This document shows, piece after piece, positions 55,492 to 55,689 of a stretch of DNA of 64,000 nucleotides. A program made the translations under genes and the position numbers. The DNA lies in contig JBBALV010000004.1 of assembly GCA_040402815.1 (NCBI GenBank), forward strand, positions 81,797 to 145,796, given 5' to 3'. Origin of the DNA: Flavobacterium sp. Its GTDB lineage: Bacteria > Bacteroidota > Bacteroidia > Flavobacteriales > Flavobacteriaceae. Numbering within the stretch: the first letter of the stretch is position 1; each line of letters opens with the position of its first letter. The notes beneath the pieces were generated by a model that saw only the letters and a list, made by a program, of their open reading frames with translations, was not told the origin of the DNA and did no database searches.

Positions 55492-55689
55492 CAAATCAGA
55501 AACCTAGGAAATTTCTACATACGAATGAGAATAAGCCGCGAGAGTTCACGTCCATCTGGGCGTGGGCTGTTCGTGCTTATTTTTCGTATGGGCTCTCCTA
55601 GGTGCCTTGATTTGATTGTAGGCATTTTGGACAGTTTCATGCCCTTTTTTATGCTTATTAGTTTAAGAGCAAGCTTCGCTTTTAAACTA
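55492..55689 (+). ncRNA. Putative structured leader RNA (rod hairpin, weak terminator-like hairpin, ATG-proximal hairpin)
   Basis: Nested helices 55492-98/55608-14, 55502-09/55596-603, 55518-25/55583-90, 55529-36/55575-82 and 55543-53/55558-68 with several G:U pairs. GGCAT..ATGCC + U6 at 55621-55650. 12-bp stem 55659-70/55678-89. Confidence 0.55.

Follow-up and report, generated by a model that had tools for sequence, protein, structure and literature searches.

A portable leader RNA with two mutually exclusive folds, a putative transcription attenuator, precedes unrelated accessory genes in Bacteroidota

Several bacterial leaders decide between alternative fates of a transcript before the first gene is reached. 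The trp attenuator of Escherichia coli uses the helices 1:2, 2:3 and 3:4, and the pyr leaders of Bacillus subtilis are under the control of PyrR. The phage lambda PR'-tR' leader (the "6S" transcript) is a terminated leader of roughly 190 nt that is read through by Q, while restriction-modification (R-M) systems are known to be controlled by C proteins, promoter methylation or antisense RNAs. Bacteroidota initiate translation in a manner that is not led by Shine-Dalgarno sequences and have unusual promoters; to our knowledge, stacked-helix attenuators have hardly been described in this phylum, and transcription attenuation by RNA switches is barely documented there. A family of Bacteroides small RNAs, FopS/GibS, has been reported, comprising multi-copy non-coding RNAs that end in an intrinsic terminator; the FopS RNAs combine a single-stranded 5' seed with the terminator hairpin and are in Rfam (PMC11697453).

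The DNA analysed here, referred to as the window, is a stretch of 64,000 nucleotides from a Flavobacterium sp. contig (JBBALV010000004.1). A 390-nt non-coding stretch separates the terminator that follows accC from a DNA methyltransferase gene, which is followed by a nuclease gene (Table 1). An earlier note on this DNA had proposed that an RNA terminator/antiterminator switch lies in this interval and controls the R-M system. We consider it probable, at roughly two chances in three, that positions 55469-55650 encode a leader that attenuates transcription in cis and can take up either of two complete folds, each excluding the other, a judgement that leans on modelled structures and their conservation among homologues.

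Table 1. Features of the leader and its surroundings in the window
Feature	Positions	Strand	Description
accB	53333-53812		Upstream neighbour of the leader
accC	53904-55250		Followed by a terminator at 55267-55300
-7 promoter box, Bacteroidota type	55407-55414	+	TATATTTG (TAnnTTTG), read from sequence
5' domain (putative anti-antiterminator, terminator state)	55469-55548	+	P0 5' strand and X (55483-91) paired with Y (55526-35) and A; constrained fold
P0 hairpin	55470-55482	+	GAGCU-UUU-AGCUC; hairpin of the rod state; in the terminator state its 5' strand is paired with A
Rod (putative antiterminator, read-through state)	55492-55614	+	5' arm 55492-55553, loop 55554-57, 3' arm 55558-55614
h5, apical hairpin of the 5' domain	55498-55516	+	
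Segment A	55543-55553	+	AGTTCACGTCC
Segment B	55558-55572	+	GGGCGTGGGCTGTTC
Terminator hairpin (putative)	55558-55644	+	B (55558-72) and Z (55573-80) paired with W (55617-24) and D (55629-44)
h3, apical hairpin of the terminator	55590-55607	+	
GGCAT/ATGCC	55621-25 / 55639-43		Weak local hairpin before U6
Segment D	55629-55644	+	GGACAGTTTCATGCCC; abuts U6
U6 tract	55645-55650	+	Directly after the terminator stem
Start-proximal hairpin	55658-55690	+	13-nt arms 55658-55670/55678-55690; ends 4 nt before the ATG at 55694
EcoRI-family N6-adenine DNA methyltransferase	55694-56683	+	Pfam PF13651, E = 3e-132; first gene behind the leader
GmrSD_N (DUF262) + HNH nuclease	56680-57771	+	Pfam PF03235 and PF01844; overlaps the methyltransferase stop

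The methyltransferase and nuclease genes overlap by ATGA behind a single leader, and the two are linked in every cassette seen (L010-L016 and L265 have this gene pair too). Neither the open reading frames nor Pfam revealed a C-protein or helix-turn-helix (HTH) gene between 55250 and 57771, where Pfam finds the methyltransferase and the GmrSD_N-HNH nuclease only; the earlier note was therefore right that the cassette carries no C-protein gene, and the small HTH controller gene with an upstream C-box operator that defines C-protein-controlled R-M systems is not seen here. The methyltransferase itself shares 72% identity with Neisseria proteins and has homologues in Spirochaetota, Campylobacterota and Patescibacteria, an unusual degree of cross-phylum conservation that indicates wide horizontal spread. 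Elsewhere around the cassette, proteins encoded nearby in the window carry T9SS sorting tails, and a long perfect palindrome lies 3' of it (58165-58302); this gives sub-threshold Rfam matches (sau-5971, 35 bits where the gathering score is 90) and looks like a bidirectional terminator or repeat structure, not a known sRNA.

The promoter box corresponds to the TAnnTTTG consensus as quoted in PMC7366714. It is kept as TATATTTG or TACCTTTG in homologous cassettes from three genomic contexts, the homology between cassettes beginning there, and its position leads us to expect a transcript start near 55420. Downstream of it the segments of the RNA run in the order P0-X-r1-r2-r3-Y-A-loop-B-Z-r3'-r2'-r1'-W-D-U tract, in which X is similar to Z, Y to W and A to D. 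Folding the plus strand of 55460-55700 gives P0, a long rod and the 13-bp hairpin at 55658-90, with an energy of -88.4 kcal/mol (z = -8.1; none of 200 shuffles did as well). Segments A, B and D, the T6 tract, the GGCAT/ATGCC pair and the start-proximal stem all lie where the earlier note had placed them. In the window copy r2 (55503-55508) and r2' (55597-55602) are both the palindrome CCUAGG, a self-complementary kissing or rod-nucleating segment that could mediate dimerisation of two transcripts.

According to the model, the leader would adopt one of two states. In state R, P0 would form together with an imperfect rod of about 60 bp, held by the pairings Y:Z, A:B, r1:r1', r2:r2' and r3:r3'; segment D and the U tract would then be single-stranded, and RNA polymerase would read into the methyltransferase and nuclease genes. 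In state T, the 5' strand of P0 and X would pair with Y and A, thereby freeing B-Z to pair with W-D in a hairpin that ends exactly at the U6 tract and would serve as an intrinsic terminator. Three elements by which an attenuator is recognized are present: a G+C-containing stem-loop immediately followed by a U tract, a mutually exclusive alternative helix on the 5' strand of the terminator, and a same-strand position between a TAnnTTTG box (identified from sequence) and an open reading frame.

Homologues made it possible to follow both pairings through evolution. Close homologues of the methyltransferase (87-95% identity) likewise adjoin this nuclease gene and occur in three settings, behind accC, a GH3 gene or a HigB-like gene; across these settings about 270 nt upstream are conserved, from the -7 promoter box to the ATG, with compensatory substitutions in the rod. 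Segments A, B and D change together, reading CACGTCC / GGGCGTG / CATGCCC in the window and CACACC / GGTGTGG / CCACACC in the homologous locus L013. In more distant cassettes, those of Flavobacterium (68% protein identity), Crocinitomicaceae and Alistipes (57%), additional changes leave this logic intact. A profile search yielded about 100 distinct copies of a core of about 185 nt extending from P0 to the U tract, 101 in the alignment, and a pattern of P0 plus X was found in at least 120 metagenome contigs (human gut, rumen, termite gut). The search pattern behind most copies prescribes P0 and X, so that the invariance of these two segments and part of the family picture are biased, the invariance of P0 in the metagenome set being imposed by the search; P0 is also present in L023 and L063, two copies that were found via protein, independent of any DNA pattern.

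Pairs were counted on a MAFFT alignment of the 101 distinct homologues that was made without reference to structure; related copies are among those counted, which inflates the covariation statistics that follow. The rod was 84.9% paired with a covariation of 0.311, against 0.203 for shuffles and 0.07-0.11 for partners slid out of register. The B-Z:W-D hairpin was 83.6% paired with a covariation of 0.315, against 0.239 for shuffles (0 of 500 reached the observed value) and 0.07-0.10 for slid partners. The 5' domain was 91.7% paired, its X:Y helix 99.4%, with covariation in X:Y at columns 57:111 and 62:106. Taken as whole structures, the terminator, the rod and the 5' domain are each 84-92% paired, compared with 30-55% for slid partners. 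Three-way changes, in which all three competing strands are altered together, were seen at alignment columns 128/160/252 and 135/153/261. RNAalifold applied to the MAFFT alignment gave a T-like structure, the hypervariable segments r1 and r3 (each with over 70 distinct versions) having been misaligned; because this result was misleading, the energies of cognate and non-cognate duplexes were used together with the explicit pair counts. Pairing between arms of the same copy was stronger than between arms of different copies for r1 (-7.2 vs -1.1 kcal/mol), r3 (-8.0 vs -2.6 kcal/mol) and r2 (-13.0 vs -9.4 kcal/mol), and the comparison likewise supports A:B, B:D, X:Y and Z:W. The earlier note had proposed that B pairs either with A at the rod apex or with D, and had named a lack of B:D conservation among homologues as evidence against a switch. 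Both alternative pairings, B:D included, proved to be conserved and covarying. Within this alignment, then, two mutually exclusive folds are kept by compensatory change, and both are therefore under selection.

The rod might instead be a structural or processing feature, either a substrate for RNase III or a stabiliser of the mRNA 5' end, with the B:D complementarity a by-product of the repeat of A in D. Double-strand-specific RNases typically target long imperfect duplexes, a general description that the rod fits, and the rod is the thermodynamic ground state: state R is the minimum-energy fold in 95 of the 101 copies. Several observations make this explanation improbable. Pairing-preserving changes occur on both sides of B:D, Z:W, X:Y, h3 and h5. 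The hairpins h5 and h3 exist in state T only and show changes on both sides at 5/6 and 5/7 pairs, respectively; their stem bases lie mostly in or beside internal loops of the rod, where they are unpaired or weakly paired with other partners, and thus the rod alone does not account for their covariation. Segment D abuts the U tract in 96 of the 101 copies, in the sense that at least five of the eight bases after D are U. Finally, B:D is on average stronger than A:B (mean cognate duplex -19.0 vs -15.7 kcal/mol) and more copy-specific. Because A is directly repeated as D, a duplication could have left behind part of the complementarity between B and D; however, such an origin would not explain the continued three-way co-variation.

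The alignment also bears on which of the two structures stops transcription. The layout of the earlier note has D form a weak local hairpin directly before the U tract. This GGCAT/ATGCC hairpin is not conserved and is absent from the nearest relatives; taken by itself, W-D averages -2.8 kcal/mol over the family, and in only 13 of the 101 copies, that of the window among them, does a hairpin at least as stable as -4 kcal/mol lie against the U tract. The conserved stop would instead be the long B-Z:W-D hairpin with the adjoining U6. When the 5' arm was blocked, all 101 copies folded B-Z:W-D as one long hairpin (mean -36 kcal/mol) ending at the U tract. Because the rod state contains no conserved hairpin before the U tract, the rod is assigned the role of antiterminator, B-Z:W-D that of terminator and the 5' domain that of anti-antiterminator. 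Thus, the terminator/antiterminator layout suggested earlier stands on the mutually exclusive pairings of B, with a polarity that differs from the one first proposed.

A further possibility is that the inverted repeat acts as DNA, as an attC-like recombination site, a cruciform or a protein operator. Long inverted repeats do lie at the edge of a mobile cassette, and P0 is a perfect 5-3-5 palindrome of operator-like appearance. The pairing nevertheless depends heavily on G:U pairs, which on the other strand would be A-C mismatches: columns 131:157 have UA in 56 copies against UG in 44, columns 151:263 GC in 52 against GU in 44. The minus strand of 55460-55700 folds at only -71.7 kcal/mol, 17 kcal/mol worse than the plus strand, and relative to the start codon that follows, the element has one fixed orientation and spacing. 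The many G:U pairs and the far greater stability of the plus strand point to an element that acts as RNA rather than DNA. The strand asymmetry of this G:U-dependent pairing sets the element apart from integron attC sites and other DNA hairpin recombination sites, and the point at which the cassettes become homologous lies upstream of the promoter rather than inside the rod. We regard a DNA-level role as very remote.

The energetics of the two folds suggest when the decision between them would be taken. State T lies above state R by a mean of 8.2 kcal/mol (range 0-17), and in the window the values are -58.0 for T and -69.8 for R. In minimum-energy folds of the growing window transcript, the 5' domain is present at 66-96 nt, P0 with X:Y and A:B at 102-114 nt and the rod from 120 nt onwards. 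The strand-displacement barriers toward the rod were estimated at 2.6 and 5.0 kcal/mol and the barrier between the finished T and R states at about 47 kcal/mol, all of them findpath values and hence heuristic upper bounds. With so high a barrier between finished states, the choice of fold would be made during transcription. Unassisted co-transcriptional folding is predicted to give the rod, i.e. read-through, and the terminator might rarely form; for termination, some input would have to prevent the 5' domain from opening over the roughly 100 nt of synthesis that precede completion of D.

Alternatively, the element could be a small-RNA gene with leaky termination, in which a terminated transcript of about 230 nt, or about 185 nt for gut copies starting at P0, is the functional product and the genes behind it depend on constitutive read-through alone, with no regulated switch. 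This product would end at B-Z:W-D and afterwards serve as a stable structured RNA. A promoter, a strongly folded RNA and a terminator would indeed make a self-contained unit; the gap between T and R differs among copies, spanning 0 to 17 kcal/mol, as though to set a fixed ratio, and the hypervariable r1 and r3 would prevent cross-pairing of copies. On the other hand, an RNA terminated in state T would face the barrier of about 47 kcal/mol and would not refold to the rod, whereas one that forms the rod co-transcriptionally would be without a terminator. Moreover, the element is always immediately 5' of an open reading frame on the same strand, and it is single-copy in most carrier genomes. A small-RNA gene is accordingly an unlikely reading, and we return to that of a cis-acting attenuator.

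For an attenuator, the nature of the input is constrained by the company that the leader keeps. The next open reading frame usually starts 5-30 nt 3' of the U tract on the same strand, which leaves no room for a promoter of its own. The open reading frames encode BACON, BspA-type LRR, DUF5036, FG-GAP and Sel1 proteins, outer-membrane beta-barrels, an acyltransferase, small HTH proteins, other DNA methyltransferases and many proteins without a known domain. By a simple heuristic, a signal-peptide-like N-terminus is found in 55 of 93 downstream open reading frames, 30 of these 55 with a lipobox-like motif. Given that the cargo differs between copies, neither the methyltransferase nor the nuclease nor any other cassette-encoded product is a candidate for the input, and since the element is single-copy in the genome of the window, delivered with a cassette and followed by unrelated cargo elsewhere, the input would have to be common to all hosts. 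Candidates would be an RNA-binding protein that is conserved among hosts, a widespread metabolite or ion, or the speed of the polymerase. No recurrent upstream neighbour gene that might encode a regulator was found among the copies.

One speculative and rather doubtful form of this idea casts the core between P0 and the U tract as a kinetic switch, portable and self-contained, with no need of a dedicated partner. The h5 and h3 loops, which correspond to r2 and r2' and are mutually complementary, would seed the change into the rod during synthesis of the last 55 nt or so, and read-through would then report elongation speed, the level of NTPs or Mg2+, or a pan-Bacteroidota RNA-binding protein. 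Mobile cassettes would plug one expression platform ahead of any cargo, and gut lineages would add different upstream modules of about 210 nt as sensors. One gut subfamily (L126, L114, L193, L194, L141, L117, L220) has a canonical TATATTTG promoter about 215 nt upstream of P0; the interval holds a conserved leader with hairpins and an ATG-NNN-stop mini-frame, and a covarying stem with an (A/T)AGCG loop lies 17-34 nt before P0. Other gut subfamilies have different modules ahead of P0, and these modules might be sensor domains feeding the shared switch core. A TPP riboswitch unrelated to the element (L207:184-279, minus strand; 53.9 bits against a gathering score of 54.3) adjoins one copy.

The breadth of the cargo also bears on a reading close to the one put forward earlier, that of an R-M timer run by cassette products or by SAM/SAH that would let methylation precede restriction in a new host. 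Leader, methyltransferase and nuclease do move as one unit, the cassette has no C protein, and the methyltransferase-type cassettes carry an extra start-proximal hairpin. This hairpin recurs at the same position from different sequences in L023, L063, L143, L171, L265 and L263, ahead of methyltransferase genes and of one acyltransferase gene, and ends 4-9 nt before the AUG; it is visible when each sequence is folded singly, RNAalifold returning nothing on the misaligned hypervariable sequences. Translation or mRNA stability are possibilities for its role. The same core of about 185 nt, however, stands ahead of more than 60 unrelated genes, among them lipoproteins, BACON, LRR, acyltransferase and HTH proteins, and most methyltransferase homologues are without it, the leader being present in 4 of 80 loci fetched through the methyltransferase protein from several phyla. 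The methyltransferase and nuclease, with overlapping stop and start behind the same leader, are not kept apart in time by it, and a single leader ahead of both cannot by itself make methylation precede restriction. As for SAM or SAH, the conserved bases are nearly all paired in one scheme or the other, no conserved unpaired pocket of the aptamer type was seen, and the cargo has no shared metabolic theme. An R-M timer is thus very unlikely, and at the window locus the restriction system would appear to stand under a generic cargo leader, not a bespoke R-M circuit.

The distribution of the element is sporadic. In a phylum-wide sample 4 of 401 genomes carry it, with one match each, and it is absent from 200 genomes of the same family as the source of the window, in whose own genome it is single-copy. 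Among Bacteroidales a looser pattern matched 48 of 401 genomes, against about 20 for a reversed-pattern control, and up to five verified copies were found in some genomes of this order. Two tandem copies lie 900 nt apart at G731:C24:53540 and 54442 (L254), and L193 contains two; in the multi-copy Bacteroidales genomes a small gene without a known domain follows each copy, an arrangement that resembles an array of leader-plus-gene cassettes. One copy is on a 125-kb plasmid of the culturable species Phocaeicola massiliensis (OY725981.1:124245-124416; 75% identity over 82% of the L134 query). A phage origin was considered and set aside: there was no match among GenBank phages and four IMG/VR contigs only, so the element is not phage-specific.

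Judged by these comparisons, the leader family is an uncatalogued and portable one that precedes many unrelated accessory genes in Bacteroidota. If the modelled folds operate as proposed, a family of about 100 members would gate mobile accessory genes, including surface lipoproteins, BACON and LRR proteins and R-M systems, in gut, rumen, termite and aquatic Bacteroidota. Finding the input of the switch would expose a general control point for the expression of newly acquired genes in these bacteria, and the leader is a prospective compact, host-independent on/off module for the engineering of Bacteroides.

How does the leader compare with described RNA classes and control systems? In Rfam 15 no family matches the element (thresholds of E <= 1 for the window and of E <= 0.1 for seven other copies), and a tRNA/tmRNA scan of the window returned nothing. 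The 6S and 6S-Flavo class, in which a stand-alone housekeeping gene encodes a rod whose central bubble resembles an open promoter, gave no Rfam match at E <= 1, and the sporadic occurrence and leader position described above do not fit that class. The FopS/GibS family was considered and rejected, since its architecture differs from that of a two-state rod/terminator leader without an Rfam match. A limited literature search found no description of this element or of a relevant Bacteroides attenuator.

As in phage lambda PR'-tR', a promoter and a terminated leader would lie directly ahead of cargo on mobile DNA; here, in contrast, the antiterminator would be inside the RNA itself, with no Q-like gene and no enrichment in phage records. 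Like known R-M control systems, the leader precedes a methyltransferase-nuclease operon carried by a mobile cassette, but where those use C proteins, methylation or antisense RNAs, this is a sense-strand leader that is shared with non-R-M genes and comes without a C gene or C-box. The SAM-I/S-box platform follows the same logic, in that a stabilised 5' domain withholds the antiterminator strand and the terminator forms. The present leader differs in having neither a multi-helix junction nor a conserved unpaired pocket, nor a coherent gene association, and two of the three segments inside its 5' domain are hypervariable; the pocket and coherent gene set that mark metabolite riboswitches are replaced here by conserved bases that are almost all paired in state R or T, with heterogeneous cargo and no Rfam match.

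The closest likeness in architecture is to the trp and pyr attenuators of E. coli and B. subtilis, which likewise place a chain of overlapping helices between promoter and first gene. The logic of stacked helices is thus known, while the leader family itself is without an Rfam entry or a description that we could find. Unlike the trp and pyr leaders, it has no conserved leader peptide (the only ATG in the 5' arm, at 55525, is absent in L013 and L015, and the 101-copy alignment holds no conserved open reading frame) and no known binding protein. Its antiterminator would be a rod of about 60 bp that also consumes the interior of the terminator hairpin, and the family precedes unrelated accessory genes in Bacteroidota rather than the genes of one pathway.
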